DNA of 32,000 nucleotides from Arthrobacter sp. FW305-BF8. GTDB taxonomy: Bacteria; Actinomycetota; Actinomycetes; Actinomycetales; Micrococcaceae. Under the pieces are notes generated by a model, which was not told the DNA's origin, did not search any database, and saw only the letters and a program-made list of their open reading frames with translations. The DNA lies in the NCBI RefSeq assembly GCF_021789315.1, contig NZ_CP084561.1:744927-776926 (forward strand). The letters are read 5' to 3'. Shown here one piece after another: positions 4,378 to 27,639 of this stretch (the stretch's first letter is position 1; every line of letters starts with the position of its first letter). The translations under genes were made by a program, and so were the position numbers.

Positions 4378-4381
4378 AGAA

Positions 4382-5428
4382 TTAGAGCAGTCCTGCCTTG
4401 GTCATCAGCTCCGTGACCTTCTCGGAGTTCAGCTTGGCGGGGTCCACGGTGGGAGCCTGAAGTTCCTTGATGGGAACCAGCTTCTCGCTGGCGGGGACGC
4501 CCGAGGCGATGGCGTATTCGAAGGACGTGCCCTTCTGCAGGACTTCCTGGCCCTTCTTGCCAGTGATGAACTTCAGGAAGGCCTGGGCGTTCTCGGCGTT
4601 CTTCGAGGACTTCAGCACGCCGCCTCCGGAGACGGACAGGAACGCGCCCGGGTCCTGGTTCTTGAAGTAGTACGGCGTGACGTTCTTGGAATTCTCGCCG
4701 GTCTTCGCCTGGTCGCCGTAGTAGTAGTAGTGGTAGATCAGCGCGGCATCAACCTCGCCGGCGTTCACTGCCTTCATGGCGGTGCTGTTGCCCTTGTAGG
4801 CGGTGAAGTTTTCCTTCATGCCCTTCAGCCAAGCCTCGGCAGCGGCCTCGCCCTTGAGCTCAACGAGGGCGGAGACAATGGCCTGGAAGTCGGCGCCGCT
4901 CGGGGAGGCTGCCCACTTGCCCTTCCACTCCGGCTTGGCCAGGTCCAGCATGGACTTCGGCAGCTTGTCCTCGGAGATCTTCTTCTTGTCATAAACCAGG
5001 ACGGTGGAGCGGGCGGCAATGCCGGTCCACTTGTTGGTGCTGGGGCGGAACTCCGCCGGAACCTGGGCAACCGTGTCCTTGGCAACGTCGGCGAACAGGC
5101 CGGCGTTCTCCACCTGCGCCATTGCGGGGGAGTTCTCGGTGAGGAAGACGTCCGCCGGCGAGGCTGCGCCTTCCTGGACGATCTGGTTGGACATCTCGGT
5201 GTCGTCACCCTGGCGGAGCGTCACCTTGATGCCGGTTTCCGCGGTGAAAGCGTCCGCCCATTCCTTGGTGAGGCTTTCGTGCTGGGCGTTGTAGACCGTG
5301 ATCTCGCCCTTTGAGGCGTCAGCCGAGGACGTGGCGGCGGGGGAGGTGCTGGAGCCGCAGGCCGAGAGGCCAAGGGCTGCGGTGGCGGCGATCGCGATGC
5401 CGGCCAGCGCGTTAATGCGGATCTTCAT
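4382..5428 (-). CDS. Extracellular solute-binding lipoprotein, Fe(III)-type (FbpA/AfuA-like)
   Basis: Has a signal peptide plus lipobox (MKIRINALAGIAIAATAALGLSAC). It shows a family-1 SBP architecture similar to iron(III) ABC binding proteins and is the first gene of a 3-gene operon preceded by an IdeR/DtxR box. Confidence 0.75.
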   Translation of the reverse strand: MKIRINALAGIAIAATAALGLSACGSSTSPAATSSADASKGEITVYNAQHESLTKEWADAFTAETGIKVTLRQGDDTEMSNQIVQEGAASPADVFLTENSPAMAQVENAGLFADVAKDTVAQVPAEFRPSTNKWTGIAARSTVLVYDKKKISEDKLPKSMLDLAKPEWKGKWAASPSGADFQAIVSALVELKGEAAAEAWLKGMKENFTAYKGNSTAMKAVNAGEVDAALIYHYYYYGDQAKTGENSKNVTPYYFKNQDPGAFLSVSGGGVLKSSKNAENAQAFLKFITGKKGQEVLQKGTSFEYAIASGVPASEKLVPIKELQAPTVDPAKLNSEKVTELMTKAGLL

Positions 5429-5510
5429 CGGGGTGCTTCTTTCTGCAAAAGTCTCGTGGGCCAGGCCCGCCGTGAGCTGGGGAAGTTAGGTGAAGCTCAC
5501 TCGAAAAACT

Positions 5511-13477: not shown

Positions 13478-13602
13478 GACGCTTCCTCACCTTTCGTCGG
13501 TTCCTTCCTAACGCGTCCTCGCCCGATGCGGGAGGGTTTGGCCTGAAGCGACGGGAACTGAGGAAGCGTTGCTGGAATTGTTGCGAAAGGTGAGGACGCG
13601 TC
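13478..13602. repeat. 125-nt nested imperfect palindrome in convergent spacer
   Basis: The outer arms gacgcttcctcacctttcg (13478-13496) and cgaaaggtgaggacgcgtc (13584-13602) pair at 18/19 positions. The inner arms aacgcgtcctc (13510-13520) and tgaggaagcgtt (13559-13570) pair at 10/11. The left arm also pairs perfectly over 11 bp with the inner right arm, which allows alternative folds. The right end touches the ABC ATPase stop codon. Confidence 0.7.
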
Positions 13603-14359
13603 AGGGGCCGTAGTGCACCACGATGGTCCGGCAGGGCGTCGTGCTGGGGACGCCGTCGCCGTCGTCGGAGTACGCGACGGTGCTCACGCGCACGCCGTAG
13701 AGGGCGGACAGCTCGGCGTCGGTCAGGAGTTCCGCAGCGTGTCCGGTCCGGACGCCCGAGCGGCCCAGCAGGACCACCCGGTCGGCAAGGTGCAGGGCGT
13801 GGTCGGGATGGTGAGTGCTGAGGAGCAGTGCCATGCCGTCGGCCATCAGTTCGCGCAGCAGCGTCAGGACGCGTGCCTGGTTCTTCAGGTCCAGGCCGGT
13901 GGCGGGCTCGTCCAGCACCAGGATGGGCGAGCCGGCGGCGATCGCCCGGGCGATGAGGATGAGCTGCTGCTCGCCCCCGCTGAGGGTGGGGAAACGCCGG
14001 TCCCGCAGCCCGGCCGCGCCCACCCGCTCCATCGCCTCCAGGGCTGCGTTGTGGTCGGATGGCCCGGGTGTCCGGAACACGCCAACGTGCCGCGCCCGCC
14101 CCATCAGGACCATGTCCAGCGCCCGGTAGGCGAAGGCGCTGCCGTGGGCCTGCGGGACGTAGCCGGCGCTCTCACTCCGCCGGACCGTTCCCTCCTGCGG
14201 GTCCAGCAACCCGGCGGCACAGCGCACCAGCGTGGTCTTGCCGCTGCCGTTGGGACCCAGCACGGCGGTGGCGGTCCCCGGCGGCACGCGGAAGCTGACG
14301 CCGCGGAACACCCAGTCCCGGGGCGAGTAGCCGAAGCCCACGGCGTCGAGTTCAAGCAC
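13601..14359 (-). CDS. ABC transporter ATP-binding protein, FecE/BtuD-type (metal-chelate importer)
   Basis: Walker A GPNGSGKTT, signature LSGGEQQLILIARAI and Walker B ILVLDEPATGLD are present. At 252 aa it has the typical size for this class. Confidence 0.85.
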   Translation of the reverse strand: MLELDAVGFGYSPRDWVFRGVSFRVPPGTATAVLGPNGSGKTTLVRCAAGLLDPQEGTVRRSESAGYVPQAHGSAFAYRALDMVLMGRARHVGVFRTPGPSDHNAALEAMERVGAAGLRDRRFPTLSGGEQQLILIARAIAAGSPILVLDEPATGLDLKNQARVLTLLRELMADGMALLLSTHHPDHALHLADRVVLLGRSGVRTGHAAELLTDAELSALYGVRVSTVAYSDDGDGVPSTTPCRTIVVHYGP

Positions 14360-15539
14360 TGTCCCAGACCTTCTCGCGGTTCCGGCGCAGGAGCAGGAAG
14401 AACACGGGCGCGCCGATCAGGGCCGTGAGGACGCCGAGCGGGATCTCCCCGGCGGTGGCCGTGCGGGCGATGGTGTCCACCAGAACGATGTAGGCGCCGC
14501 CAAGCAGGAAAGAGACGGGCAGGAGGACACGGTGGTCCGGCCCCACCCACATGCGGGCCAAGTGCGGGATCACCAGGCCCACCCAGCTGACGGCCCCGCT
14601 GACTGCCACCGCGCCGGCCACGATGAGCGCCACCGCCACGAGCACCACCCAGCGGAGCGGGCGCGGGCGCACGCCCAGGGCGGCCGCGTCCTCGTCGCCG
14701 AGGGACAGCACGTTGATCCGCCAGCGCAGGGCCACGAGGACCGCGGCCCCGCCAAGGACGGGGATCAGGGCCACCGCTACTTTGGCAAAGGTTGCCGTGG
14801 ATACGCTGCCCAGGAGCCAGAAGACGATAGCGGGCAGCGTGGTGTTGGGGTCCGCAATGTAGGTCACCAGGGCCACCAGGGCTGAAAAGAAGGACCCGGT
14901 GACCACGCCGCCGAGCACGATCATGAGCATCGGCGTCCCGGCGCGGCCCGAGGTGATCAGGAACAGGGTCCCGAGTGCCAGCAGCCCGCACACGAAGGAG
15001 CCGCCCACCAGGAGGAGCGGACCCAGCCCGAGCAGCAGCGCCAGGGCTCCGCCGAAGGATGCGCCGGCAGACACACCGATGATCTCGGGGCTGACGAGGG
15101 GATTGCGGAAAATGGCCTGCAGCGCTGCGCCGCCAATCGCCAGGCCGCCGCCCACCAGCAAGGCGAGCAGGATCCGCGGCAGCCGGACCAGCAGCACAAC
15201 GTTCTGTTCGGTGCCGCTGGCCTGAACCGGGACCGGGGCGAGCTGTGCGGCCAGGATCTGGACCACGTGGTCCAGCGGCACGCTGTAGCGACCCACCGCC
15301 AGCGCCAGCACCGCCACGGCGATAAGGAAGCAGGCACTGAGGGCAACGGGAACGACGACGGCGGGTTCCCGCCGTCGTTCTCCCGCCTCCCGTTTCCCAA
15401 GCCTGTGTTCCAGTGCCTGCCGCTCTTCAGCGCCGCCCGGGCCGGCAGCCGGGCCCGCCCGTGGCAGTGCCGGCTGCGCCGGTGGCAGTGCCGGGCGCAG
15501 CCGCCTGCCCAGCCGCGGGGAGCCCGCCTCATCAAGCAT
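14352..15539 (-). CDS. FecCD-family metal-chelate ABC permease
   Basis: A polytopic FecCD/BtuC-like hydrophobic core. The ATG at 15539 overlaps the SBP stop (ATGCTTGA). The product still carries a roughly 55-aa Arg/Pro-rich N-terminal extension, so the true start may lie further downstream. Confidence 0.8.
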   Translation of the reverse strand: MLDEAGSPRLGRRLRPALPPAQPALPRAGPAAGPGGAEERQALEHRLGKREAGERRREPAVVVPVALSACFLIAVAVLALAVGRYSVPLDHVVQILAAQLAPVPVQASGTEQNVVLLVRLPRILLALLVGGGLAIGGAALQAIFRNPLVSPEIIGVSAGASFGGALALLLGLGPLLLVGGSFVCGLLALGTLFLITSGRAGTPMLMIVLGGVVTGSFFSALVALVTYIADPNTTLPAIVFWLLGSVSTATFAKVAVALIPVLGGAAVLVALRWRINVLSLGDEDAAALGVRPRPLRWVVLVAVALIVAGAVAVSGAVSWVGLVIPHLARMWVGPDHRVLLPVSFLLGGAYIVLVDTIARTATAGEIPLGVLTALIGAPVFFLLLRRNREKVWDSA

Positions 15540-16665
15540 TGAACTGCCGGTAGTTGGCGGACTGCCCGTTCTCTGCGGTCCGGAGAATCTTGTCCAGCTC
15601 ATCGCCGGTGAGTTCGTGGTTGTACAGGAACCTGAAGTATTCGGAGGCCTTGCTCCGCACGGCAGACCTCTGCTGCGGGAAGGCGATGTCGCCCAGCCAG
15701 TGCCACATCAGCGCCGACTCCTGCCCGGGCGGATCCCAGCGGTAGCCGCCCAGCGGTACCTTGTACACGCGCTTCGAGCGGACCGCGGCCACGTTCTGCC
15801 ACACCGGGTCCGAGTAGATGTCCTGCGCCATGGCGGCGTCGAAGTTACCCAGCAGGATGACCTCGGGGTCCCAGCGCAGGACCTGCTCGATGTCCACGCC
15901 CAGCATGCCGGAACCGGTCAGCGGGTCCTTGCCGGTGGCCGGGTTGGAGCCGCCCACCAGCTTGATGTAGAAGTCGTTGTAGCTGTTGGCACCGGCCACC
16001 TTGAGCCCGCCGGTGAAGCGGTTGAAGTACAGGATGCTCGGGCCCTTGGACGCGCGCCCGGCGGCGAGGGACTTGACCTCGGCAAGCTCCCGGTCGCTCC
16101 GGGTCTTGAGCTCGGCGGCACGCTCGGGCTTGCCGAGCATCGCGGCGAACATGGCAACCCAGGCGTCCACATCCTCCTGCGTGCCGGAGTTCTTCAGCCC
16201 CAGAACCTGAAGCCCCGCCTTCTCCAGGGGCTCGATGAGCTGCGCGTCCGACCACTGGACCACCACGTCCGGGTTGAGGGCCCGGATACTTTCAACGTTG
16301 GCGGTGAAGTCCTGGGTGGCGATGTCGTGCGGTAGGTCCAGTGCGCCGGGAAACATGGAGCCCATGATGCCGTCGCGCATGGCCGTCCAGGAGGCGTTGT
16401 GCATGGCCGCGAGATGGTCGGCGCTGCGGTCGACGGCGACCAGCAGGGACGCCGACGGCATCGGGATGGTCACCACCCGGGCCACCGGCCAGTCAAAGGA
16501 CAGGGTCTTGCCGCGCTGGTCCGTGAGGCTGATGCTGTTGGTGCTGTCGGGAGGGGACGACGGCGGGGCGGTGCCGGATGCGCCGCATCCGGCCAGCAGG
16601 GCGGCGGAGCCGCCTGCAACAAACACCTGTAGGGCGGCGCGGCGGTTTAGGTCTGCAGCTGTCAT
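15532..16665 (-). CDS. Periplasmic-binding-protein (BtuF/FhuD class) lipoprotein with Tat-type signal
   Basis: The N-terminus MTAADLNRRAALQVFVAGGSAALLAGC contains a twin-arginine motif and a lipobox. It has class III SBP features and is the first gene of a 3-gene importer operon. Confidence 0.8.
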   Translation of the reverse strand: MTAADLNRRAALQVFVAGGSAALLAGCGASGTAPPSSPPDSTNSISLTDQRGKTLSFDWPVARVVTIPMPSASLLVAVDRSADHLAAMHNASWTAMRDGIMGSMFPGALDLPHDIATQDFTANVESIRALNPDVVVQWSDAQLIEPLEKAGLQVLGLKNSGTQEDVDAWVAMFAAMLGKPERAAELKTRSDRELAEVKSLAAGRASKGPSILYFNRFTGGLKVAGANSYNDFYIKLVGGSNPATGKDPLTGSGMLGVDIEQVLRWDPEVILLGNFDAAMAQDIYSDPVWQNVAAVRSKRVYKVPLGGYRWDPPGQESALMWHWLGDIAFPQQRSAVRSKASEYFRFLYNHELTGDELDKILRTAENGQSANYRQFNA

Positions 16666-16866: not shown

Positions 16867-17640
16867 ATGGTTATCGATGGTGCCCAGTTGTTCGTCCGCT
16901 ATGCCTATCCGCCCAATTCACGTGGCAGCTGCGGCCCGCCGGACAGCGACGCCCTGCTGCACTACGGGCAGTCCGGCGTCACGGACCAGGGGCTCCGCGA
17001 ACTTGCCAAGGGCTTTGCCGGCGCCTGGCCCTACCTCGAACTGATCGCCGGATCGCATGGCATCGCCGATCCGCTGGACGCCCGCGTGGTGGAGGCCTAC
17101 TGGGTGGGCAACAGCCTCCTGGATACCGTCGGCATCACCAACCTCGGCAATTCCATGGAGGACAGGTTCCGGGCGCGCACCGGGCGGCAGTTCCCGCATC
17201 TGGTGGAAGGGGTGCTGGCGGGCGGGGTCCCACACCACAGTTTCCACGTGTTCGAGATCTACCCGTGGCTGGGCCTGCTCCGCGACGAACGCCGGCACGC
17301 CACCGCGCTGAACGTGCTGGACAGGTGCAGGATCCGCTGGGGGCAGGTGCTCGCGATCTCCGGGGACGACGCCGTCGTGCGGTCCCGGCCCCTGGTGTGG
17401 GACGGGACAGCCCTGGACATCGGCGAGCCCGTGGTGGAATCAGCCAAGTTCGCCGTGAACGGGACCGGCTTCGTGGCCGGGCTGGCCGTGGGCGACGTCG
17501 TCTCACTGCACTGGGACTGGGTGTGCGACCGACTCTCCACCCACCAGCTGCAGCAGCTCAAGCACTTTACGGCGCGGCACCTCCGGATTGCCAACAGCGG
17601 CGTCGCACACCGCGGCGCAGCCATAGCGCTCGAACACTAG
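16867..17640 (+). CDS. Conserved hypothetical protein (I recall the family as DUF6390) with a HypC-like C-terminal segment
   Basis: The internal ATG at 16867 is preceded by gaaggtgg. The product begins MVIDGAQLFVRYAYPPN.. and has coding-like GC3. The C-terminal segment CRIRWGQVLAISGDDAVV...GDVVSLHWDWVCDRL resembles the HypC pattern MCLGIPGxVV...GDWVLVHVGFA. Confidence 0.6.
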   Translation: MVIDGAQLFVRYAYPPNSRGSCGPPDSDALLHYGQSGVTDQGLRELAKGFAGAWPYLELIAGSHGIADPLDARVVEAYWVGNSLLDTVGITNLGNSMEDRFRARTGRQFPHLVEGVLAGGVPHHSFHVFEIYPWLGLLRDERRHATALNVLDRCRIRWGQVLAISGDDAVVRSRPLVWDGTALDIGEPVVESAKFAVNGTGFVAGLAVGDVVSLHWDWVCDRLSTHQLQQLKHFTARHLRIANSGVAHRGAAIALEH

Positions 17641-17706: not shown

Positions 17707-18093
17707 TTACGGTGACTGCGGCGCCGGACCGTCGGGATGCTCGGGGGTCTTGACGGCCGTCGCATCACGGGCGGACGACTCGCCGGCTGGCCGGCCGGCA
17801 GGCGAATCATCGGTTCCCGTGTGCTCGCGTCCCGGTTCGGTGCCCTCCTCCTTGATGACGTCCTCGCCCCGGCGGGTGGTGCTGACACCGACGTCAACCG
17901 GAGCCGGTGCCGCGTCTTCAGGGGTTTCGTCCGCTCCGGGCTGGGCGGGTTCCTTCAGCGGCGGTTCGCTGCCGAAGGCCCGGGCTGTCCCTGGTGCGGT
18001 GCCCTCTGCGGCGCCCGACGCGGTGCCCTGTTCTTCGCCCTTCCCGGCGACCGTTTCCTCGTCGGCGGGGTCAGGCTGGTTCGTGGGTGACAT
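17707..18093 (-). CDS. Acidic, intrinsically disordered hypothetical protein (last gene of hydrogenase operon)
   Basis: A strong RBS (AAGGAGAGCAGCATG) lies inside the hypC 3' end, giving a 23-nt overlap. The 128-aa product is Pro/Glu/Ala/Gly/Thr-rich with no hydrophobic core. GC3 is coding-like. Confidence 0.5.
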   Translation of the reverse strand: MSPTNQPDPADEETVAGKGEEQGTASGAAEGTAPGTARAFGSEPPLKEPAQPGADETPEDAAPAPVDVGVSTTRRGEDVIKEEGTEPGREHTGTDDSPAGRPAGESSARDATAVKTPEHPDGPAPQSP

Positions 18094-18376
18094 GCTGCTC
18101 TCCTTGTGGTGGTTGTGCGGGCTGGGATCCGGGACCGGTGTCCGCAGGGCGGCCCATCAGCTCCAGTCCTTCCATGGCCTGTTCTGCGCCCGCGGCGTCT
18201 ACGCGTTCCAGCGCGAAGCCCATGTGGATCAGGACCCAGGTGCCGGGTTCCAGGGGCCCCTCATCCAGCAGCCCGATGTTGATCTTCCGGTGCACTCCGG
18301 CCACATCGACGAGTGCCAGTTGGCCGCCGTACCCCTCGAGGAGTTCAACGACCCTGCCGGGTATTCCGAGGCACAT
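18071..18376 (-). CDS. hypC: Hydrogenase assembly chaperone HypC/HupF family
   Basis: Has the N-terminal MCLGIPGRVVEL motif with the essential Cys2, and WVLIHMGFALERVD. A roughly 25-aa Pro/Gln-rich C-terminal tail follows. Confidence 0.9.
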   Translation of the reverse strand: MCLGIPGRVVELLEGYGGQLALVDVAGVHRKINIGLLDEGPLEPGTWVLIHMGFALERVDAAGAEQAMEGLELMGRPADTGPGSQPAQPPQGEQHVTHEPA

Positions 18377-18390
18377 GTACGGACACCGCC

Positions 18391-18900
18391 TTACTTTGAA
18401 GTGGAAAACCGGCCTGGAGTGGAAGAGGCCCGGCCGAGCAGGGACTCGACGGCGGCGGCGGCCTTGGGCACCGCATCGGCCACCGCCGGCGAAAGGCCGA
18501 TGCCTTCGGACAGGTCTGCGGGGACACAGCCCACCACGTACGTCACCGGCAGGCTGCCGCCCATGGACCGAAGCCGGCCCAGCACGGCCGCCGGGTCCAT
18601 GCCGTGGGGATCGAGCATGGCCCTGCTGTCCAGGTCCGCCGCGCTGACCCGTAGCACGCGGATGCTGCCGGGAGCCCAGCTACCGTCCGCAGGCACCGTG
18701 TCCACGAGGACCAGGGTGCCGACGCCGGCCAAAAGATCGTAGGCCAGGTGCATGCCGCGGATGCCGTAGTCCACCACGCGGACGCCGGTAGCCAGCGGCT
18801 GCGGATGGTCGGCGAGGTGACGTGCCACCTCGGGGCCGAAGCCGTCGTCGTGCAGGAACATGTTCCCGACGCCGGCCACGAGGACGCCGCCGGCGGTCAC
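18391..18900 (-). CDS. hupD: [NiFe]-hydrogenase maturation endopeptidase (HyaD/HupD/HybD family)
   Basis: Contains VLVAGVGNMFLHDDGFGPEVARHL and later DPHGM, matching the metal-ligand Asp/His pattern of this family. The GTG start overlaps the stop of the 39-aa ORF (GTGA). Confidence 0.85.
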   Translation of the reverse strand: MTAGGVLVAGVGNMFLHDDGFGPEVARHLADHPQPLATGVRVVDYGIRGMHLAYDLLAGVGTLVLVDTVPADGSWAPGSIRVLRVSAADLDSRAMLDPHGMDPAAVLGRLRSMGGSLPVTYVVGCVPADLSEGIGLSPAVADAVPKAAAAVESLLGRASSTPGRFSTSK

Positions 18901-19016
18901 ATCCGCCGCACTTTCATGTACCGCCGGATGTCCGGAACTGCGCGGATTCCGACGTAGATGCCCCAGAGTGCCATCGCTGCAAGCACCGAAACCGTGGCCA
19001 TTCCTATTGCCTTCAT
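18897..19016 (-). CDS. 39-aa single-TM microprotein (not in ORF track; below size cut-off)
   Basis: Hand translation of the minus strand gives MKAIGMATVSVLAAMALWGIYVGIRAVPDIRRYMKVRRM*. The ATG overlaps the upstream gene stop (TAATG) and the stop overlaps the protease GTG (GTGA). A purine-rich GGAGGGAAAGGAA lies 7-8 nt upstream. The product is one hydrophobic helix plus a basic tail. Confidence 0.65.
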   Translation of the reverse strand: MKAIGMATVSVLAAMALWGIYVGIRAVPDIRRYMKVRRM

Positions 19017-20413
19017 TACGGGTTTTCCTTTCCCTCCAGCGGCTCCAGTTCGTCAGGGGCGTAGTAGAAGGACCGGCCGTAGCCCTCGTGAAGATCGGCC
19101 GCCGGATCCTGCTCGAGGACGAGCCCGACGTGGGTGCTGCCGTCGACGTCGAAATGCACGCTGGTGACCCGCCCGGTCTGCCCGCCGAAGAACAGGTCCT
19201 GGGCGTCGGCGCGCCGGTTCGGGTGCACGCGCACCCGGCTGCCGCGGGCCACCGCGACGCCGTTGATCACGACGGCGTCCTGGTCCGGCCGGACACGGGC
19301 CTCCGCCTCCGGATTCCACCACGGAACGTCCTGGCTGGCCGTGCTCCACGATTCCGCCGGGGCATAGTCACCGGGATCCGCGGCGAACGCGCGCGGGTTC
19401 CGCAGGGCGCCGTGCAGCTGCTGCAGGTCCTCCGGCGACATCGCCTCACAGCGGTCGATGACGGCGGCGGCCCGCGAGTCCGTCGCCCGCGCCTCGGCCT
19501 TTTCCTCGTCGGTCAGCGTCAGTACCCGCAGCGTGAGGATCTCGTCGATCTCGGTGGAGTCATACAGCGCCACCGAACTTTCCGGGGCGACCGCGGGATG
19601 ATCGTAAAGAATGATGGGCGAGATCAGCAGCACGTCGGTCTGGCCTTCGGGGCCGGCCAGCACGGGCCAGCAGCGGTGCTGGGAACACAGCCCGGCTGCA
19701 GGCTGTGCCCACCCGGGCGGGTCCAGCAGCGAGACGAAATCCCCGTCCCGCACGCCGAGCAGCACGTGGGCGCCGATGAAGGAGGCCGCGGCCGCGTCCT
19801 GCCGGTTCCCGGCCGGCAGGGGACCGGCCGGCAGCGGATGAGCCGTGTTGGCCGCGGTGATGCTGAGCCGCAGCAGCCCGCCGGAATCTTCGGCGGCATG
19901 CAGCCGCAGTTCTCCGCGGAGAGCACGACGGCGGCGCACCAGCCGGCCGGCCGGCCTCCCGGCGTCGTCCTTGAGTTCCTCGACGTCGAGTCCCTCGGGT
20001 ACCTCCACCGGCAGGACCTGTCCGGCCCGGAGCTGGGCCACGGAGAACGGCCCGAACCCCACTTCCTGTTCTACGGCCTCGTCCCAGCTCAGCCAGTTCG
20101 CACCGCCCACGGTGAGGCTGTCCACGGGAGTGAACCCGCCGCCATCGTCCGCTTTTTCTGCCGTGCGCGTCTGCAGCTGCAGGAAGCGGAAATGGATTTC
20201 AAGCCCGGCCTCGGCGCCGGGGGCAAGCAGGCAGTCGGCGGACATGGACGGTTCCTCCCCGCTGCCGTCCTCCGCGGCGCCGGGCGGACCCAGGATCCCG
20301 AACTGCCAGCGGACCTGGTTCTTCTGGGCGGAGGCCCGGTAGGGGTAGAGCAGGTAGCCCTCGTAGAGGACGGCGTCCGCGACGGCCCGGGCAAGGGCCA
20401 GACTGGTGTTCAT
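19016..20413 (-). CDS. Conserved hypothetical protein of group 1h hydrogenase clusters (465 aa)
   Basis: The internal ATG (residue 71 of the tracked ORF) overlaps the upstream stop as ATGA. The product begins MNTSLALARAVADAVLYEGYLLYPYRASAQKNQVRWQFG. I recognise no catalytic motif. It is co-oriented with, and translationally coupled to, hydrogenase genes on both sides. Confidence 0.7.
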   Translation of the reverse strand: MNTSLALARAVADAVLYEGYLLYPYRASAQKNQVRWQFGILGPPGAAEDGSGEEPSMSADCLLAPGAEAGLEIHFRFLQLQTRTAEKADDGGGFTPVDSLTVGGANWLSWDEAVEQEVGFGPFSVAQLRAGQVLPVEVPEGLDVEELKDDAGRPAGRLVRRRRALRGELRLHAAEDSGGLLRLSITAANTAHPLPAGPLPAGNRQDAAAASFIGAHVLLGVRDGDFVSLLDPPGWAQPAAGLCSQHRCWPVLAGPEGQTDVLLISPIILYDHPAVAPESSVALYDSTEIDEILTLRVLTLTDEEKAEARATDSRAAAVIDRCEAMSPEDLQQLHGALRNPRAFAADPGDYAPAESWSTASQDVPWWNPEAEARVRPDQDAVVINGVAVARGSRVRVHPNRRADAQDLFFGGQTGRVTSVHFDVDGSTHVGLVLEQDPAADLHEGYGRSFYYAPDELEPLEGKENP

Positions 20414-21063
20414 GGCCGTTCCCCGGAAACATCCGCGGTGGCCTGCGCGAGGAGTTTCTCCACCGCCGATTCCCACGACGTGAGGCCCTCGGCGGACTTG
20501 TACCGGGCGAGTGCTGCCAGGACGTCGCGGTCCAGGCGGATCCATCCGGCGTTCGGGAAGTACTGGTCCATGAGGCTGCGCCAAGCGGCGACGGGCAGTT
20601 TGTAGGACGCCTCGAGGTCCCACGGCACCTGTTCCACCGTGAACCCGGTCTGCCCTTTGGTGAACACGGTGCCGGAGAACAGCAGCTCCAGCGGTATCTC
20701 GCCGTCGCGCAGCGCATGCAGGTATTTGGCGGCGGCCACGTCGAAATCAAACGTGCAGGGCAGCGGGAGGTCCGCCTCGGTGCTGCCCGTGAAACCCTGC
20801 ACCATGGTGCTGCACTGCATCCAGATGAACGACTTGAGCGTGCTGGGCCAGCGTCCGCGGTCTCCGAATAGGTCCAGCAGGCCCGTCTCCTCCTCGGGCG
20901 CGTACCCGCGGCGCTGGGGCAGGATCCGGACCTGGCAGCGCAGCGCCACGGCGTGCACCACGGCCCCGGTGCCTTCCGTCAGCTGCAGCCTGGCCGTCAG
21001 CTGCGGGGCGGCGGCGTAGGGTTCGGGCCGGATCTCCATCACGGCGAAGGAAAGCTCGGTCAC
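20410..21063 (-). CDS. Conserved hypothetical protein (recalled as DUF6084-like), hydrogenase-associated
   Basis: 217 aa, beginning (V)TELSFAVMEIRPEPYAAAPQLTARLQL. The GTG start overlaps the upstream stop (GTGA). No motif is recognised. Confidence 0.7.
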   Translation of the reverse strand: MTELSFAVMEIRPEPYAAAPQLTARLQLTEGTGAVVHAVALRCQVRILPQRRGYAPEEETGLLDLFGDRGRWPSTLKSFIWMQCSTMVQGFTGSTEADLPLPCTFDFDVAAAKYLHALRDGEIPLELLFSGTVFTKGQTGFTVEQVPWDLEASYKLPVAAWRSLMDQYFPNAGWIRLDRDVLAALARYKSAEGLTSWESAVEKLLAQATADVSGERP

Positions 21064-21773
21064 CGGAAGCCTCCCGTGCCGGCGGAATCTGCCGGCGCCG
21101 GAACGCTGCGGCGGTTGATCCGGTCGAAGAAGGAGGCGAGCTCATCGCGTGCCTCCTGGCCGCCGTCGAACCCCCGCCAGAGGCGGCGCAGCCGGCCCAC
21201 AAGCTCGTAGCAGGCGTCCACCGGAACGAGGTGGCAGTCCGCGGCGGCCCTGCCCGGGCCCGGGCCGCGGATCAGCAGCGCCTCCGTGTCCGGCGCCGCG
21301 AGGCCGAGGGCCGGGTTGCGGGCCAGCACGCTGTCCCAGGCGGCAAGCGGCAGTTCCGATTCGGTGGCCCCGGCCGGGCCCGGGTAGAACGCCACCGTGC
21401 GCCCGAGCTTGGAACTGCGGAAGAAAAACGCCAGGCCCACCGGAATTTCCAGTTCGTCCCACTGCCCAGGGCCGAGATCGAAGCCGGGGAAGGAGAAGTA
21501 TCTGTCCGGCACCGAGCGGTAGCGCAGATGGGCGGTCGCATCGGTGAAGAGGAGGTAGCAGGGCCGGCAGGTGCACATCATGGCGTGGCTCCCCAAGTCC
21601 ACCACGTGCTGGTGTGCCTCGGAAATCGGTTCGCCGCACATTTCGCAGCATTCCCCGGCGGCAGGAGCGGGCCGGTTCGCGGAAATCCGCCGCAGCAAGG
21701 CCACCGGCAAGGTGCCGTTGGCCTGGCCGGTTCCCGGGCCGCGCCCTGTACCTCCTCCGTTCTCCATGTTCAT
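21060..21773 (-). CDS. Cys-rich conserved hypothetical protein (recalled as DUF5947-like), hydrogenase-associated
   Basis: The ATG at 21773 lies 1 nt after the hhyE stop. The N-terminal region carries CCEMC-x20-CTCRPC plus three His residues, a probable metal site. The remaining roughly 170 aa are uncharacterised. Confidence 0.7.
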   Translation of the reverse strand: MNMENGGGTGRGPGTGQANGTLPVALLRRISANRPAPAAGECCEMCGEPISEAHQHVVDLGSHAMMCTCRPCYLLFTDATAHLRYRSVPDRYFSFPGFDLGPGQWDELEIPVGLAFFFRSSKLGRTVAFYPGPAGATESELPLAAWDSVLARNPALGLAAPDTEALLIRGPGPGRAAADCHLVPVDACYELVGRLRRLWRGFDGGQEARDELASFFDRINRRSVPAPADSAGTGGFR

Positions 21774-21774
21774 C

Positions 21775-23013
21775 TCAGCGGTCCTGTCCGCCGGCTGCCT
21801 GCAGTTCCGGGGCAATGCCGGGCGCCGGCGTCGCGATGGGCACGGACACGCCGGCTGCAGGTGCCGGTCCACGTGCCGCCTGAACGGACACCGCCGCAGA
21901 CACCGGGGCCGGCTCCGCCGGGGCCGGCTCCGCCGGGGCCGGCTCCGCCGGTTCCGGTCCAGGCGCCGCCGGGACGGGTTCCAGCCCGGCCGGTGTCACC
22001 AGCGGGATTGCCTGCACCGGCGTCACGGCTGCCGGGGCTGCCGGTACCGGGGCAACCGCCAACGGCGCGGACTGCACGGACACCGTCGGGACCGCCACGG
22101 ACATCACTCCGTTCCGGACCAGCAGCGGAAGCGGCTCCAGGTGCAGGTCCTTGTCCTCGAGGCAGGTGCCCGCCCGCCGCACGTCAAAGTGGCCGCGGCA
22201 GGTAGGGCAGGTGAGCAGGCCGCCGCCAACCGGTGCCGCGAGGGCGCGCTGCAGCACGGCGCCGGCCATGGAACCGGTGCAGCGCGGGCAGTAGTCGCGG
22301 TAGGCGTAGATGTCCTGGCCTGTCCGGCAGGCCAGCACCGCGTAGCCGCCGACCAGGAAGCCTGCCACCTCGCCGGGTTCGAGCCCGGCGATCTCCGGAA
22401 CCGGTTCCCACGTGCCGCCGGACATGTCGTGCCAGGATTCGGCGGGCGTGCCGCCCGCCGGATTGTTCACCCGGACCAGCAACGAATCCACCGGAATCAG
22501 CGCCGGGGCGCCCGGCTGCTTTTCCGCTTCGACGACGTCGATGGCGGTCACCTCGGGGGCGGCGTTCTGGATGGCCTCCTCAACGGCGTACTTGAGCGTG
22601 ACGGACGATGACGGGCACCCTTGGCAGGTGCCGAGCAGCTTGAGCCGCACCACGCCGTCGGGACTGATGCCTTCGAGCTCCACGTCGCCGCCGTGGGAGC
22701 CGAGGTAGGGCCGCACACTGTCCAGCGCCGCGGCCACCCGCGCCTCCAGCGAATGGGGGTGCAGCCCGTGGATCACCAGGAGGCCGGCCACCAGGCTGTC
22801 AGCGGTCAGCGCTTCCAGAGTGACGTCGTCGAGCTTTCCATGGGCCTGCAGGATCTCCATGATCCGCTGCAGTCCCGCGCCGTAAAGGTCTGTCACCTGC
22901 CGGACCAGGTCCTCGGCACGGCCGCGGGCCACCGCCCCGCCGGCGCCGAGGGCGTCAAGGAGTGTGCCTATTTGGTCGCCGCTCTGCAGCGCCGGCCGGT
23001 CCCCGCCGAGCAT
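21775..23013 (-). CDS. hhyE: NifU-domain / Rieske-fold-like putative Fe-S protein of Hhy clusters with Pro/Ala-rich tail
   Basis: Contains a NifU C-terminal domain (VRPYLGSHGGDVEL...LLGTCQGCPSSSVTLK). This is followed by a Rieske-like beta segment whose ligands are CPRC...CPTC instead of CxH...CxxH. A roughly 110-aa P/A/V-rich tail follows, including (AEPAP)x3 encoded by three perfect 15-bp repeats at 21905-21949. The gene starts 3 nt after the hhyL stop. Confidence 0.75.
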   Translation of the reverse strand: MLGGDRPALQSGDQIGTLLDALGAGGAVARGRAEDLVRQVTDLYGAGLQRIMEILQAHGKLDDVTLEALTADSLVAGLLVIHGLHPHSLEARVAAALDSVRPYLGSHGGDVELEGISPDGVVRLKLLGTCQGCPSSSVTLKYAVEEAIQNAAPEVTAIDVVEAEKQPGAPALIPVDSLLVRVNNPAGGTPAESWHDMSGGTWEPVPEIAGLEPGEVAGFLVGGYAVLACRTGQDIYAYRDYCPRCTGSMAGAVLQRALAAPVGGGLLTCPTCRGHFDVRRAGTCLEDKDLHLEPLPLLVRNGVMSVAVPTVSVQSAPLAVAPVPAAPAAVTPVQAIPLVTPAGLEPVPAAPGPEPAEPAPAEPAPAEPAPVSAAVSVQAARGPAPAAGVSVPIATPAPGIAPELQAAGGQDR

Positions 23014-23016
23014 GGC

Positions 23017-24810
23017 CTACTCGCCGGTCAGGGTCTGGGTGGGGGAGTGGAGCATGTCCAGCGTCTGCCCGTTGCCCAGGTACATGTGGACACCGCAGGG
23101 CAGGCAGGGATCGAAGCTGCGGACGGTCCGCATGATGTCGATGCCCTTGAAGTGCTCGCGGTCGTTCTCCTCGAAGATCGGCTGCCCCTGGACCGCGTCC
23201 TCATAGGGGCCGGCCACACCGTTGGAGTCGGTGGGGCTGGCATTCCATGGAGTGGGCGGGTAGGGGTGGTAGTTGGCGATCTTGCCGTCGCGGATCACCA
23301 TGTGGTGGGACAGGACTCCGCGGACCGCCTCGGTGAAGCCGCAGCCGATGCCTTCATCCGGGACCTCGAAGGTTTCCCACGTCTTGGTGCGTCCGGCCCG
23401 GATCTCCTCGAGGGCCTTTTCCGCGAAGTGCAGCGCCGCAGCCGCGGCGTAGGCCTGGAAGTAGGTGCGGGCGCGGTTGCGTTCGAGCGTGTTGCTCCAC
23501 TGCGGGATGTTCCACTCGAACGTGACGGGCCCCTTCAGAGCGGTCTTGGGCAGGTTGATCTGGACGCTCCTGCCGGTGGCCTTGAGGTAGCCGATGTCCA
23601 CGAGTCCGGCGAGCGCCGTGGCCCAAAGCCGTGCGAGTGGGCCGCCGCCGGTGTCCAGGGCGAGGTTGTCCTGGCCGTCGAACCAGCGCGGGGACATGAC
23701 CCAGCTGTACTTGTCCGAGAGGTCGCGCTTCTGCGGCCGCGGGTTGGTGTGCTGGTTCCACGGATGCCTGCGGTCCACCGGGTTGCCCAGCGGATCGTGG
23801 GTAACGAACATTTCCTGGTCTTCCCAGTCCTCGTAGTACGAAGAGCCGAGCATGATTCGCAGGCCCAGGTTGATGCGCACCAGGTCGGTGGTGACCAGTT
23901 TGCCATCCACCACCACGCCCGGGGTGACGAACATCTTCCGGCCCCACTCGGTCATGTCCTTGTATTCGAAGTTGCAGTAGTCCGGGTCCTGCAGCGACCC
24001 CCAGCAGCCCAGCAGCGTCCGCCGCAGCCCCACCTGCTCATAGCCCGGCAGTGCCTCGTAGAAGAAATCGAACAGGTCGTCGTGCATCGGGACGACCTTC
24101 TTCATGAACTCCACGTAGCGCATGAGCCGCGTGAGGTAGTCCGTCATCAGCTGGATGGTGGCCACCGTCCCCACGCCGCCCGGATAAAGCGTGGAGGGGT
24201 GCACATGGCGGCCCTCCATGAGGCAGAACATCTCGCGGGTGGCGCGGCTGACCTGCAGGGCCTCCCGGTAGAACTCGCCGGTGAAGGGGTTCAGCGAGCG
24301 CATGATGTCGGCGATGGTCCGGTAACCGTGGTCCGCCTCATGCGGTGCCCGGGTGTTTTCGGCCTTGGCGAGGACGCCGGGGTTCGTTTCGGAGACCATC
24401 TTTTCGCAGTAGTCCACGCCAACGAGGTTTTCCTGGAAGATGTTGTGGTCGAACATGTACTCGGCGGCTTCGCCCAGGTTGACGATCCATTCGCCCAGGC
24501 TCGGGGGCTTGACGCCGTAAGCCATGTTTTGCGTATAGCAGGAGCAGGTGGCATGGTTGTCGCCGCAGATCCCGCAGATGCGGCTGGTGATGAAGTGGGC
24601 GTCCCTTGGGTCCTTGCCTTTCATGAAGAGGGAGTAGCCGCGGAAGATCGAGGAAGTGCTCTTGCATTCCACGACCTGGTTGTTCTCGAAATCGATCTTT
24701 GTGTAGATGCCGAGGCTGCCGACGATCCTGGTGATGGGATCCCAGTTCATTTCCACCAGGTTGCTGTTGCCCGCTCCGCTTCCGGAACCCATGGGAATTG
24801 TTGACGTCAT
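23017..24810 (-). CDS. hhyL: [NiFe]-hydrogenase large subunit, group 1h (formerly group 5)
   Basis: The L1 motif TSRICGICGDNH and the L2 motif SFDPCLPCGVH are present, and I recall these as the published group 5/1h signatures. A 22-aa extension after the terminal His (MYLGNGQTLDMLHSPTQTLTGE) is consistent with endopeptidase processing. Confidence 0.95.
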   Translation of the reverse strand: MTSTIPMGSGSGAGNSNLVEMNWDPITRIVGSLGIYTKIDFENNQVVECKSTSSIFRGYSLFMKGKDPRDAHFITSRICGICGDNHATCSCYTQNMAYGVKPPSLGEWIVNLGEAAEYMFDHNIFQENLVGVDYCEKMVSETNPGVLAKAENTRAPHEADHGYRTIADIMRSLNPFTGEFYREALQVSRATREMFCLMEGRHVHPSTLYPGGVGTVATIQLMTDYLTRLMRYVEFMKKVVPMHDDLFDFFYEALPGYEQVGLRRTLLGCWGSLQDPDYCNFEYKDMTEWGRKMFVTPGVVVDGKLVTTDLVRINLGLRIMLGSSYYEDWEDQEMFVTHDPLGNPVDRRHPWNQHTNPRPQKRDLSDKYSWVMSPRWFDGQDNLALDTGGGPLARLWATALAGLVDIGYLKATGRSVQINLPKTALKGPVTFEWNIPQWSNTLERNRARTYFQAYAAAAALHFAEKALEEIRAGRTKTWETFEVPDEGIGCGFTEAVRGVLSHHMVIRDGKIANYHPYPPTPWNASPTDSNGVAGPYEDAVQGQPIFEENDREHFKGIDIMRTVRSFDPCLPCGVHMYLGNGQTLDMLHSPTQTLTGE

Positions 24811-24840
24811 TGTCTTCTTCGCCTGTCTGGAATGGGGTGG

Positions 24841-25899
24841 TTACCAGGTGCGCCGGGCCCCGGTGAGGAGCTCGGGTCCGGGCCGGCGCCACTTGGGCTC
24901 CTGGTCCAGGGTGTGCGTCGTGATGCCCCTGAGCGTCCGGATGGCGGAGCCGTAGGGCCGGATGGTGCTGGTGGAAAGCTTGCCGCCGGGAGGCTCATCC
25001 ATGAAGGGCATGAACTTGTCCGGGAAGCCCGGCATGGTGCAGCCGATGCAGATGCCGCCGACGTTGGGGCAACCGCCGATGCCGTTCATCCACCCGCGCT
25101 TAGGCACGTTGCACTTCACCACGGGGCCCCAGCAGCCGAGCTTGACGATGCACTTGGGGGAGCCGTACTCGGTGGCGAAGTCGCCCTGCTCGTAGTAGCC
25201 GGCCCGGTCGCAGCCCTCGTGGACCGTCTTGCCGAACAGCCAGGTGGGTCGCAGTGCCTCATCCAGCGGAATCATCGGTGCCTGGCCGGTGGCCTGATAG
25301 AGCAGGTACGTCATGGTTTCGGAGAGGTTGTCAGGCTGGATCGGGCATCCGGGCACGCACACGATGGGGATGCCGGCCTTGGACTTCCAGTCGTAGCCGA
25401 GGTAGTCCGGCACACCCATGGCGCCGGTTGGGTTGCCGGCCATGGCGTGGATGCCGCCGTAGGTTGCGCAGGTTCCGGCGGCAATGATCGCGGTGGCCTT
25501 GGGTGCCAGGCGGTCCAGCCACTCACTGGTGGTGATGGGCTGGCCGGTCTCGAGGTCGTTGCCGAACCCGCACCAGTAGCCGCCGGGGTCATGGAGCTTC
25601 TCGTTGGGAATGGATCCCTCGACCACCAGCACGAACGGTTCAAGTTCGCCCCGGTCCGCCTTGCGGAACCATTCCAGGAAGTCGTCGGCCCCTTCCTGCG
25701 GGCCGCATTCAAAGTCGATCAGTGGCCAGTGCATGGCGATCTTCGGCAGGCCGGGCAGCGCCCCGAGGGCGATTTCCTCGACGCTCGGCTGGGTGGCCGC
25801 GGTCAGGGCCACCGAGTCGCCGTCACAACTGAGCCCTGCGTTGATCCACAGCACGTGGATAAGGGCTTCTTCGGCCTTGAGGGAAGTTTCCGTAGGCAT
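24841..25899 (-). CDS. hhyS: [NiFe]-hydrogenase small subunit, group 1h, no Tat signal
   Basis: Fe-S cluster Cys patterns are present (LSCDGDS, GTCATYGG, CVPGCP, CNVPKRGW, GGCPNVGGICIGCTMPGFPD). The N-terminus MPTETSLKAEEALIHVLW lacks a twin-arginine leader, as expected for cytosolic group 1h enzymes. Confidence 0.92.
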   Translation of the reverse strand: MPTETSLKAEEALIHVLWINAGLSCDGDSVALTAATQPSVEEIALGALPGLPKIAMHWPLIDFECGPQEGADDFLEWFRKADRGELEPFVLVVEGSIPNEKLHDPGGYWCGFGNDLETGQPITTSEWLDRLAPKATAIIAAGTCATYGGIHAMAGNPTGAMGVPDYLGYDWKSKAGIPIVCVPGCPIQPDNLSETMTYLLYQATGQAPMIPLDEALRPTWLFGKTVHEGCDRAGYYEQGDFATEYGSPKCIVKLGCWGPVVKCNVPKRGWMNGIGGCPNVGGICIGCTMPGFPDKFMPFMDEPPGGKLSTSTIRPYGSAIRTLRGITTHTLDQEPKWRRPGPELLTGARRTW

Positions 25900-25929
25900 C
25901 GTTGCCTCTTTCAGTGCCCCTGCTGGGGT

Positions 25930-26826
25930 TCAGTGTGCTTGTGTCAGGGTGCCGGTCAGGGGTTCTGACGCGGCTGTCCCGGAGGTTGGCGCCGCCGCTT
26001 GGGGGGTGGCGCCGTCGAGCCAGCCGTACCAGGCGGCGAGGCCTTCGCCGGTGGCGGCGGACAGCGTGAGGAATTCGGCCCGCGGATTGATCTGCCGGAT
26101 CCGGTGCAGGCATCGGTCGACGTCGAACTCGACGTAGGGGAGCAGGTCCGACTTGTTGACGATCACGAGGTCGGCTGCCATGAACATGTGCGGGTATTTC
26201 TGGGGTTTGTCATCACCTTCCGTTACCGAGACGATCACCACCTTGGCCGTTTCGCCGAGGTCAAACAGCGCGGGGCAGACGAGGTTGCCCACATTTTCAA
26301 TGAAGACCGTGGAGCCCGGCTCTGGCGACAGCGCGTCGAGGCCGTGCCGCAGCATGTCGGCGTCGAGATGGCAGCCGGCTCCCGTGTTGATCTGGATGAC
26401 CGGGCGCCCGGTGGCGCGGATGCGGTCAGCGTCGAGGGACGTCTCCTGGTCCCCTTCGATGACTCGCGCGTCCAGGCGCCTGCCCAGTTCGGTCAGCGTG
26501 CGGACCAGGAGGGTGGTCTTGCCGGCACCCGGTGAACTCATGACGTTGAAAGCCCGCACCCCCCGGCCGGCAAGCCAGCCGCGGTTCGTGGCGGCCAGCA
26601 GGTTGTTCTTGGCCAGCAGATTCTGCTCGAGCACGATGGTTTCTGGGCCCGCCGCCGCATGGTGGTGCCCGTCCGTGTGCCCTTGGGGGGAGTGGTCGTG
26701 GGTGTACGTGCGCCCGTGCTCATCGGTGTGGCTGTGCGGGTGCCCCTGCCCGGGTGTGTGCAGTTCGCCTGCGAGGTTTGAAATGCGGGTGCCGGCCTCG
26801 TCGCCGCAACCGCATGTTGTACACAT
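25930..26826 (-). CDS. hypB: Hydrogenase nickel-incorporation GTPase HypB (His-rich N-terminus)
   Basis: Has the N-terminal MCTTCGCG metal site, a His-rich stretch (GHPHSHTDEHGRTYTHDHSPQGHTDGHHH), the P-loop SSPGAGKTTLL and the G-domain motifs ENVGNLVCP and NKSDL. Confidence 0.92.
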   Translation of the reverse strand: MCTTCGCGDEAGTRISNLAGELHTPGQGHPHSHTDEHGRTYTHDHSPQGHTDGHHHAAAGPETIVLEQNLLAKNNLLAATNRGWLAGRGVRAFNVMSSPGAGKTTLLVRTLTELGRRLDARVIEGDQETSLDADRIRATGRPVIQINTGAGCHLDADMLRHGLDALSPEPGSTVFIENVGNLVCPALFDLGETAKVVIVSVTEGDDKPQKYPHMFMAADLVIVNKSDLLPYVEFDVDRCLHRIRQINPRAEFLTLSAATGEGLAAWYGWLDGATPQAAAPTSGTAASEPLTGTLTQAH

Positions 26827-26829
26827 GCC

Positions 26830-27159
26830 CTATGCCACCTCCACGGACATCAGCATCAGCTCGCGGCCGCTGAGGACTTCGACGTCCGCGCTTCCGCAAG
26901 GGCAAAGCAGAATGAGATCGCTCAGGGTGAATTCGTCCTGGCAGCTGCGGCACCGTCCGCGGCCCCGCGGTTCGTCGATCTGCAGCCGCGCGCCAGCCAG
27001 CGGGGTGCCGGCCGCTGCCACGTCAAAACAAAAACGCACGGCATCAGCCAGTACGCCGGAAAGGGGACCGATCCTAAGGTTGACCGCAGTGACCGTCCGT
27101 TCACCTGTGCGGTCCAGAACGGCGTCGACAAGGCCCTGCGTGATGGAGAGTTCGTGCAT
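26830..27159 (-). CDS. hypA: Hydrogenase nickel insertion protein HypA
   Basis: The internal ATG gives a 109-aa product beginning MHELSITQGLVDAVL, which is the canonical MHE Ni-binding N-terminus. Zn-site cysteines CRSC...CPCG are present. The upstream 97 codons of the tracked ORF look non-coding. Confidence 0.88.
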   Translation of the reverse strand: MHELSITQGLVDAVLDRTGERTVTAVNLRIGPLSGVLADAVRFCFDVAAAGTPLAGARLQIDEPRGRGRCRSCQDEFTLSDLILLCPCGSADVEVLSGRELMLMSVEVA

Positions 27160-27333
27160 GATCGCGCCCCTTTTTGCCAAGATAGGCTCGCGCCAGAGAA
27201 AACGCAACCGTCCGGATTTCCGCCCGCCGTTCGCCGGTTCGAACGGACAGCTACGGCCCTGCCGGAGCCGGATTTTGGGGCCACAGGTGTCCGTTCGCGC
27301 TGTGTCCTTCCCACCCTTCGCTAGGGTTGGAGG

Positions 27334-27639
27334 ATGCCGTCCTTTCAGACCAGACTCAAGATCACCGGGCTGAAGCCGGGCAACCCTCCCGAAGCCGTAA
27401 TGGACACCGCCGTGGAGGCGCTGGGGTCGCGGCATCATGTGGAGTCGCACCAGCTGGAACTGGCCGGGGGCGTGCCGCAGCTTAACCTGCGCTTCCTCGT
27501 GGAGCCCACCGAATACAACGGTGAGAACAGCGCGGCGCGGGAATCGGCAGCAGTGATGCGCGACGCCGTCGAACGCGTTGCGCTGACAGGCTCGCTTTCG
27601 GTACTCCGCCGCAGCCGCGGCCGCTGGGCGCCCGTCTAA
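27334..27639 (+). CDS. Hypothetical protein divergent from the hydrogenase operon
   Basis: 101-aa ORF with strongly coding-like GC3. GGAGG directly abuts the ATG, which is poor spacing, so the start is uncertain (alternative Met23 at 27400). No homology is recognised. Confidence 0.4.
   Translation: MPSFQTRLKITGLKPGNPPEAVMDTAVEALGSRHHVESHQLELAGGVPQLNLRFLVEPTEYNGENSAARESAAVMRDAVERVALTGSLSVLRRSRGRWAPV

Follow-up and report, generated by a model that had tools for sequence, protein, structure and literature searches.

A group 1h [NiFe]-hydrogenase island under purifying selection in Arthrobacter genomes that lack HypD, HypE and HypF

The 32,000-nucleotide stretch of DNA of the soil bacterium Arthrobacter sp. 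FW305-BF8 analysed here (contig NZ_CP084561.1, positions 744,927 to 776,926; below, the window) carries a predicted twelve-gene operon for a group 1h (Hhy) [NiFe]-hydrogenase in a genome that yields neither HypD, HypE nor HypF, the proteins by which the Fe(CN)2CO centre of such enzymes is otherwise made. The operon is part of a chromosomal island that is under strong purifying selection, in which a paralogue of the DUF6390 family and an ATP-binding cassette (ABC) importer stand where the missing genes would be expected. We lean towards the reading that the enzyme is active and that its iron ligands are assembled without HypDEF; the DUF6390 paralogue and the importer would be candidate components of such a route.

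Results

HypD, HypE and HypF are missing from the host genome

The host genome (5.11 Mb in three contigs, completeness rated 100%) encodes a single [NiFe] large subunit. A search of the complete genome with the HypD profile PF01924 gave no match, and for HypE and HypF nothing exceeded the curated cut-offs in the same genome, where sub-threshold hits fell on acylphosphatase-like and PurM-like open reading frames (ORFs). Searches by tblastn with HypD, HypE and HypF of a related member of the order, run against the entire genome, were also negative. The maturation genes that are present encode HypA, HypB, one HypC and a specific endopeptidase, with the signature N-termini MHE (HypA) and MC (HypC); the HypD scaffold and the two enzymes of cyanide ligand synthesis, HypE and HypF, are the parts of the canonical set that were not found.

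The same three proteins are absent from every HhyL-positive Arthrobacter genome tested, including the closed single-contig genome G018 and that of Arthrobacter sp. A5. None of 401 evenly sampled Micrococcaceae genomes (38 genera) yielded HypD, and 20 of them, from seven genera, carry HhyL. The search is sensitive: it recovered HypD from 13 of 15 other group 1h genomes and, across the class, from 123 of 401. HypA to HypF are described as necessary for the cofactor in every [NiFe]-hydrogenase studied, and the review text gives no exception (PMC12134894); our literature search found no report of group 1h hydrogenases without HypDEF. The original prediction had described an ordinary high-affinity hydrogenase system, a view that does not hold in a genome without hypD, hypE and hypF and in a family without HypD among all its sampled members. 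Because these proteins are absent, scavenging of atmospheric H2 cannot simply be read from homology, and is better treated as a hypothesis that carries an unexplained step.

In several HypDEF-less genomes outside the Micrococcaceae, weak HypE-profile matches (42-62 bits) to a PurM-family ORF lie 9-17 kb from an acylphosphatase-like ORF (G509:C4, G534:C13, G749:C5, G816:C10, G529:C54 and G061:C217). We considered such pairs as a hidden HypEF and judged them to be, more probably, housekeeping synteny of PurM-family and acylphosphatase genes.

Hydrogenase class and operon layout

HhyL contains the motifs TSRICGICGDNH (L1) and SFDPCLPCGVH (L2), both read in translation as the original prediction had reported, and continues for 22 residues beyond His575. 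Over residues 13-575 it matches HofG of the Cupriavidus necator actinobacterial-type hydrogenase (5AA5) with 1071 bits, far above the next-best match, a NiFeSe enzyme (163 bits), and above Huc of group 2a (128 bits). In a tree of 88 large subunits, it falls among actinobacterial HhyL, in a well-supported Arthrobacter clade that is sister to Rhodococcus/Prescottella. HhyS aligns with HofK from residue 14 (548 bits), has the sequence CDGD at the proximal-cluster site, and begins MPTETSLK, with no twin-arginine motif, which agrees with the earlier remark that it lacks a leader for twin-arginine translocation (Tat). By these comparisons HhyL is classed as the large subunit of a group 1h (Hhy, actinobacterial-type) [NiFe]-hydrogenase, as originally proposed, and the enzyme is predicted to be a cytosolic, Tat-independent uptake hydrogenase. 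The gene directly after hhyL, with a NifU domain, corresponds to HhyE, which is needed for Hhy activity and H2 oxidation in Mycobacterium smegmatis (PMC6883350).

Genes were named by Pfam and NCBIfam profile searches, with hits judged against curated cut-offs. Twelve minus-strand ORFs run from hypA at 27159 down to an acidic tail gene at 17707, all where the original prediction had placed them. The junctions computed from the sequence, in gene order, are +3, +30, +30, +3, +1, -4 (GTGA), -4 (ATGA), -1 (TAATG), -4 (GTGA), +14 and -23 nt; they reproduce the earlier values and the tight coupling proposed from them, and on this spacing the twelve genes form one tightly packed, translationally coupled unit. 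Pattern scans for promoters and terminators returned nothing exceeding the shuffled expectation. The operon and the features beside it are as follows.

27160-27333, no strand: region upstream of hypA and right-hand edge of the island; the ORF at 27334-27639 abuts the phosphoenolpyruvate (PEP) carboxylase gene in hydrogenase-free Arthrobacter
26830-27159, minus strand: hypA, nickel metallochaperone, 109 aa, starting MHE (PF01155, E 8e-30; TIGR00100)
25930-26826, minus strand: hypB, nickel-inserting GTPase, 298 aa (TIGR00073, 265 bits, above cut-off; PF02492)
24841-25899, minus strand: hhyS, small subunit, 352 aa (PF14720, PF01058; 548 bits to HofK, 5AA5_A)
23017-24810, minus strand: hhyL, large subunit, 597 aa, with both CxxC pairs (1071 bits to HofG, 5AA5_C; motifs; tree)
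21775-23013, minus strand: hhyE, NifU-like putative Fe-S electron-relay protein, 412 aa (PF01106, E 1e-22; weak Rieske_2 match)
21060-21773, minus strand: DUF5947 protein, 237 aa, kept in all 1h clusters (PF19372, E 5e-72; synteny in 80 loci)
20410-21063, minus strand: DUF6084 protein, 217 aa, kept in all 1h clusters (PF19562, E 2e-96; synteny)
19016-20413, minus strand: 465-aa protein, kept in all 1h clusters, no family above cut-off (homologues in 78 of 80 loci; dN/dS 0.18)
18897-19016, minus strand: 39-aa single-helix microprotein whose ATG overlaps the upstream TAA (no family; conserved in Arthrobacter; dN/dS 0-0.3)
18391-18900, minus strand: HupD/HybD-type maturation endopeptidase, 169 aa (TIGR00072, 112 bits, above cut-off)
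18071-18376, minus strand: hypC, HypC1/HupF-type chaperone, 101 aa, starting MCLGIPG (PF01455, TIGR00074)
17707-18093, minus strand: acidic low-complexity tail gene, 128 aa, overlapping hypC by 23 nt (no family)
16867-17640, plus strand: DUF6390 paralogue, convergent on the operon (PF19927, E 1e-91)
15532-16665, minus strand: substrate-binding protein of a BtuF/FhuD-class ABC importer (PF01497, E 2e-25; 4OVK, 168 bits)
14352-15707, minus strand: FecCD/BtuC-type permease, start codon uncertain (PF01032, E 4e-79)
13601-14416, minus strand: ABC ATPase of the importer (PF00005)

No NCBIfam name was returned for the DUF6390, DUF5947 and DUF6084 proteins or for the 465-aa protein. The 39-aa gene sits between the 465-aa gene and the protease gene through the TAATG and GTGA overlaps, and is conserved throughout Arthrobacter and in a few Nocardia and metagenome-assembled genome (MAG) loci. 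The 128-aa tail ORF is rich in Pro, Glu, Ala and Gly and is probably coding, to judge from a ratio of nonsynonymous to synonymous substitution rates (dN/dS) of 0.1-0.28; it is confined to part of the Micrococcaceae, occurring in G002, ISL-65, G018, NPDC058192, ISL-48 and G131 and missing from others.

The closest public genomes to the host are those of Arthrobacter sp. ISL-65 (98%), A. bambusae and Arthrobacter spp. NPDC058192, ISL-48 and A5, which bears out the Micrococcaceae-like surroundings noted in the original prediction. Two records in the comparison set deserve mention. In one Arthrobacter (L011, G010:C10:7278-9068), hhyL has two in-frame TAG stops; the gene may be a pseudogene in this species, or the assembly, which has 420 contigs, may contain a sequencing error. 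Another record (L034) is titled Rhodococcus sp. IEGM 1379 and carries the tree taxonomy Chroococcidiopsidaceae/Cyanobacteriota, probably a lineage mislabel in the source table.

A chromosomal island with a DUF6390 paralogue and an importer in place of hypFCDE

In 80 actinobacterial loci, the canonical order is hypA, hypB, hhyS, hhyL, hhyE, DUF5947, DUF6084, 465-aa gene, protease, hypC1, hypF, hypC2, hypD, hypE and DUF6390. The hypC of the window is the orthologue of hypC1, with 64-70% identity to HypC1 of G053 vs 35% to HypC2. On its 3′ side lie, in turn, the acidic tail gene, a DUF6390 gene of opposite orientation (16867-17640) and an importer of substrate-binding protein, FecCD permease and ATPase (13601-16665). 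Other Arthrobacter species and four more genera of the Micrococcaceae have this order at the equivalent position of the chromosome. Four closed, hydrogenase-free Arthrobacter genomes have the PEP carboxylase gene joined straight to the ORF right of hypA; the unit gained or lost therefore extends from about 13.5 to 27.3 kb and includes the importer and the DUF6390 gene. A 13.8-kb chromosomal presence/absence island thus spans the operon, the DUF6390 paralogue and the importer, so that the original prediction, which implied a functional unit of twelve genes, fell short by the plus-strand DUF6390 gene and the three importer genes. Only about one-fifth of the Arthrobacter species sampled carry the island. 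Its right edge is marked by a plus-strand 101-aa ORF (27334-27639) of no family, divergent from hypA and 75-87% conserved in hydrogenase-free Arthrobacter.

The island genes are under strong purifying selection

Substitution rates between the window and eight Arthrobacter species were estimated by the NG86 method. For hhyL, dN/dS was 0.017-0.066, and for hhyS 0-0.05, at synonymous divergences (dS) of 0.1-1.4; in the accessory genes all values lay between 0.06 and 0.34, with medians of 0.09-0.25. Arthrobacter medians were 0.046 for hhyL, 0.030 for hhyS and 0.14 for hypC at a dS of about 1, a range in which NG86 values are rough for DNA of 70% GC. In HypDEF-bearing Streptomyces, Mycobacteriaceae, Nocardia and Micromonosporaceae the hhyL medians were 0.063-0.109, so Arthrobacter is as low or lower. 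The dS of the island equals that of the flanking genes, and the island has therefore diverged along with the chromosome. All of its genes are under strong purifying selection.

The HhyL alignment of 88 sequences has 343 invariant columns out of 606, and none of the 606 separates HypDEF-less from canonical proteins; no change private to Arthrobacter was found at otherwise conserved sites. An alignment of HypC1 likewise gave no distinction between the two kinds. An enzyme with a different active site would be unlikely on this pattern.

HypDEF-less loci recur in other Actinobacteria

HypD is also missing from Modestobacter marinus, from Blastococcus, Propionibacteriaceae and Aeromicrobium MAGs and from two more MAGs, and HypE and HypF are missing from those tested. 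In an even sample of the class (401 genomes, all at least 90% complete), HhyL occurs in 91 genomes, 11 of which lack HypD. Three of these 11 were set aside, G576 having HypF (probably an assembly gap) and G729 and G731 being too fragmented, which leaves at least 8 of the 91, about one-tenth, confirmed to be without HypD, HypE and HypF. The arrangement of the window, hypC1 followed by a DUF6390 gene of a distinct clade instead of hypF, recurs in other actinobacterial families; we refer to such loci as variant loci. One HypDEF-less locus (L118, G529:C58) departs from this arrangement: its HhyL is more divergent (72%), its cluster is rearranged, and the stretch fetched contains no DUF6390 gene.

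HypDEF-less lineages are scattered in the HhyL tree. A single origin of their HhyL was considered and dropped: one clade is rejected by the approximately unbiased test (p 0.005), and the large-subunit and DUF6390 trees conflict. One MAG (MFD02581.bin.3.121, contig_9964; loci L100 and L123) holds, in one cluster, hypC1, the DUF6390 paralogue and an Fbp-type importer, then hypF-hypC2-hypD-hypE and a canonical DUF6390 gene. Since both types of DUF6390 gene occur in one cluster, they are true paralogues. A history of insertion followed by loss is plausible from this gene order, and the cluster of this MAG is a possible evolutionary intermediate.

The DUF6390 paralogue has a HypC-like C-terminal domain in its predicted fold

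In the DUF6390 tree, the copies from HypDEF-less loci group as a single clade (SH-aLRT, the Shimodaira-Hasegawa-like approximate likelihood ratio test, 99; stem 0.47 changes per site) that is distinguished by twelve diagnostic positions. Their dN/dS is 0.09 vs 0.27-0.48 in canonical copies, a constraint about three times tighter. Residues invariant in the family alignment are Cys48, His149-His150, Cys180-Arg181, His241 and Cys246. An AlphaFold (AF2) model (predicted local distance difference test score, pLDDT, 78; predicted template modelling score, pTM, 0.80) is helical in its first domain and ends in a small barrel and a helix, the C-terminal barrel starting at Cys180. The best structural match of the model is Thermococcus kodakarensis HypC (2z1c; E 0.024, probability 1.0, template modelling score 0.60 on the target), followed by ribosomal proteins of the oligonucleotide/oligosaccharide-binding fold; the helical domain found no match in the fold search. 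The HypC-like domain is supported by the fold search and a motif, the Pfam HupF_HypC profile giving no match to DUF6390 even at E 10. These features fit a cofactor- or iron-carrying role, although they do not amount to proof of one.

The importer is linked to variant loci

An importer of either the FecCD type or the Fbp type adjoins the DUF6390 paralogue in nearly all variant loci. That of the window, whose FecCD/BtuC permease has BtuC and the F420-0 permease as best NCBIfam matches (both below cut-offs), is orthologous (49-71% identity) to the importers of Aeromicrobium and locus L069, which lie co-directionally behind the hydrogenase cluster; the permease alone is 69-71% identical to these copies. 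About 65 canonical loci contain no Fbp-type importer, and their sole FecCD-type match is weak (33%) and lies upstream (L046).

A second, Fbp-like ABC importer is encoded on the minus strand of the window at 1628-5485, 8 kb off the island (a binding protein, a double permease and an ATPase with a TOBE domain). It was rejected as a counterpart of the variant-linked Fbp-type systems, as the similarity is that of a generic ATPase, with no match of binding protein or permease.

Discussion

On the reading that we favour with some reserve, HhyLS would be made and active, and electrons from H2 would pass from HhyS through HhyE to the respiratory chain. HypA and HypB would insert nickel, the HupD-type endopeptidase would cut HhyL after His575, and the Fe(CN)2CO centre would be produced or acquired by a route without HypD, HypE and HypF; we place the DUF6390 paralogue and the importer first among its candidate components. 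A broader proposal, which we offer tentatively, is that a subset of aerobic Actinomycetota, including all sampled hydrogenase-bearing Micrococcaceae, builds or acquires Fe(CN)2CO without HypDEF by means of a HypC-like DUF6390 fusion and a dedicated importer.

Several points weigh against HypDEF-independent assembly by these components. HypC, HypD, HypE and HypF are needed by every [NiFe]-hydrogenase studied experimentally (PMC12134894), and we can name no source of the CN or CO ligands in the variant. The original prediction knew of no characterised example in the Micrococcaceae, and our literature search likewise found no report of H2 uptake or hhyL in Arthrobacter or the family. The DUF5947, DUF6084 and 465-aa genes are not variant-specific replacements, because they are present in canonical clusters too. 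The importers are of two distinct families among variant loci, their types point to iron or a chelate rather than to diatomic ligands, so that their role may be confined to metal supply, and one variant locus (L117, G816:C3:8160-28159) has the DUF6390 paralogue with no importer within 10 kb. The roughness of the NG86 estimates mentioned above belongs here as well.

The observations on the importers would suit an enzyme that is active and HypDEF-independent but whose ligand chemistry is carried out by genes elsewhere or by uncharacterised components common to canonical clusters, the paralogue and importer merely feeding iron or nickel: the importers belong to iron or metal-chelate classes, two non-homologous types suggest generic metal supply, and one locus does without. 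We regard this as unlikely. No other candidate was seen, the matches to HypF and HypE profiles being limited to acylphosphatase-like and PurM-like genes; the paralogue has a HypC-like domain and three times the constraint of canonical DUF6390; and importer linkage is confined to variant loci, apart from the weak FecCD match in L046. The established view that no Fe(CN)2CO is made without HypDEF (PMC12134894) would lead instead to a protein without this centre, HhyLS having a different or incomplete metal site and serving, for example, in redox or metal handling, and the island is clearly selected, so some function exists. If the cofactor were changed in this way, the pocket would be expected to be relaxed or remodelled, yet no position of HhyL differs between the two kinds and their 343 shared columns are invariant, while HypA, HypB, HypC and the Ni-dependent protease are all kept under selection; we therefore think a non-hydrogenase role improbable as well.

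That the operon is a decaying relic of a hypFCDE deletion is suggested by the two TAG stops in hhyL of G010 and by the presence of the island in a mere fifth of sampled Arthrobacter species. This we consider very improbable, given that species with the deletion layout in common show hhyL dN/dS values of 0.02-0.07 at a dS that reaches 1.4, that the twelve ORFs are all intact in at least eight species, and that constraint is equal to or above that of canonical clades; very recent exchange of the island among carriers is argued against by its flank-like dS. On these substitution patterns, relic status would be excluded. Finally, a complete set of hyp genes is usual in Streptomyces, Mycobacterium and Rhodococcus loci, and an ordinary group 1h system whose hypD, hypE and hypF lie elsewhere or were missed by assembly or search might be supposed here too. 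It deserves hardly any credence: the genome is 100% complete in three contigs, closed relatives (G018 and Arthrobacter sp. A5) are also without HypDEF, the search readily detects these proteins elsewhere, and the negatives from the genome and from the family contradict it.

Significance

Most of the soil sink of atmospheric H2 is attributed to group 1h hydrogenases, the enzyme type by which bacteria can live on traces of H2 in air, and counts of hhyL genes are used in surveys as evidence of H2 oxidation. About one-tenth of hhyL-positive species in the even class sample lack maturation genes that textbooks treat as indispensable. Either hhyL counts overstate the number of H2 oxidisers, or a HypDEF-independent way of building the NiFe(CN)2CO site exists. 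If the latter is true, [NiFe]-hydrogenases would have a second pathway of maturation or salvage, as yet undescribed, and the accepted maturation model would change, which would be relevant to the heterologous production of O2-insensitive hydrogenases. The question is directly testable, as A. bambusae DS999 and Arthrobacter sp. A5 are among the carriers in culture and hydrogenase-free relatives exist as well.

Comparison with known systems

The canonical HypABCDEF pathway of Escherichia coli and C. necator (PMC12134894) shares with Arthrobacter the use of HypA, HypB, one HypC and an endopeptidase; it differs in having HypF and HypE, the enzymes of the CN ligands, and the scaffold HypD, all of which the host genome lacks.

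Like the HypC/HupF family (2z1c), the C-terminal third of DUF6390 is predicted to form a HypC-like barrel and helix that start at an invariant Cys, with a GD-x-V-S-L-H-W motif resembling that of HypC. HypC starts at its essential Cys, whereas the DUF6390 barrel starts at Cys180, an internal residue preceded by a helical domain of 150 residues in which another Cys and a His-His pair are invariant, and the fold match is weak (E 0.024).

HofKG of C. necator H16 (5AA5) resembles the Arthrobacter enzyme in both active-site motifs, in the absence of a Tat signal and in CDGD at the proximal-cluster site. In C. necator, a full Hyp set (pHG1 megaplasmid) serves for maturation, in contrast to the Arthrobacter genome without HypD, HypE and HypF.

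From hypA to hypC1, gene order and content are identical to those of the Hhy cluster of M. smegmatis and the canonical hhy cluster in general, HhyE included. Beyond hypC1 the two part: the hypF-hypC2-hypD-hypE-DUF6390 block of the canonical cluster is gone in Arthrobacter, and the DUF6390 paralogue and the ABC importer are found instead.

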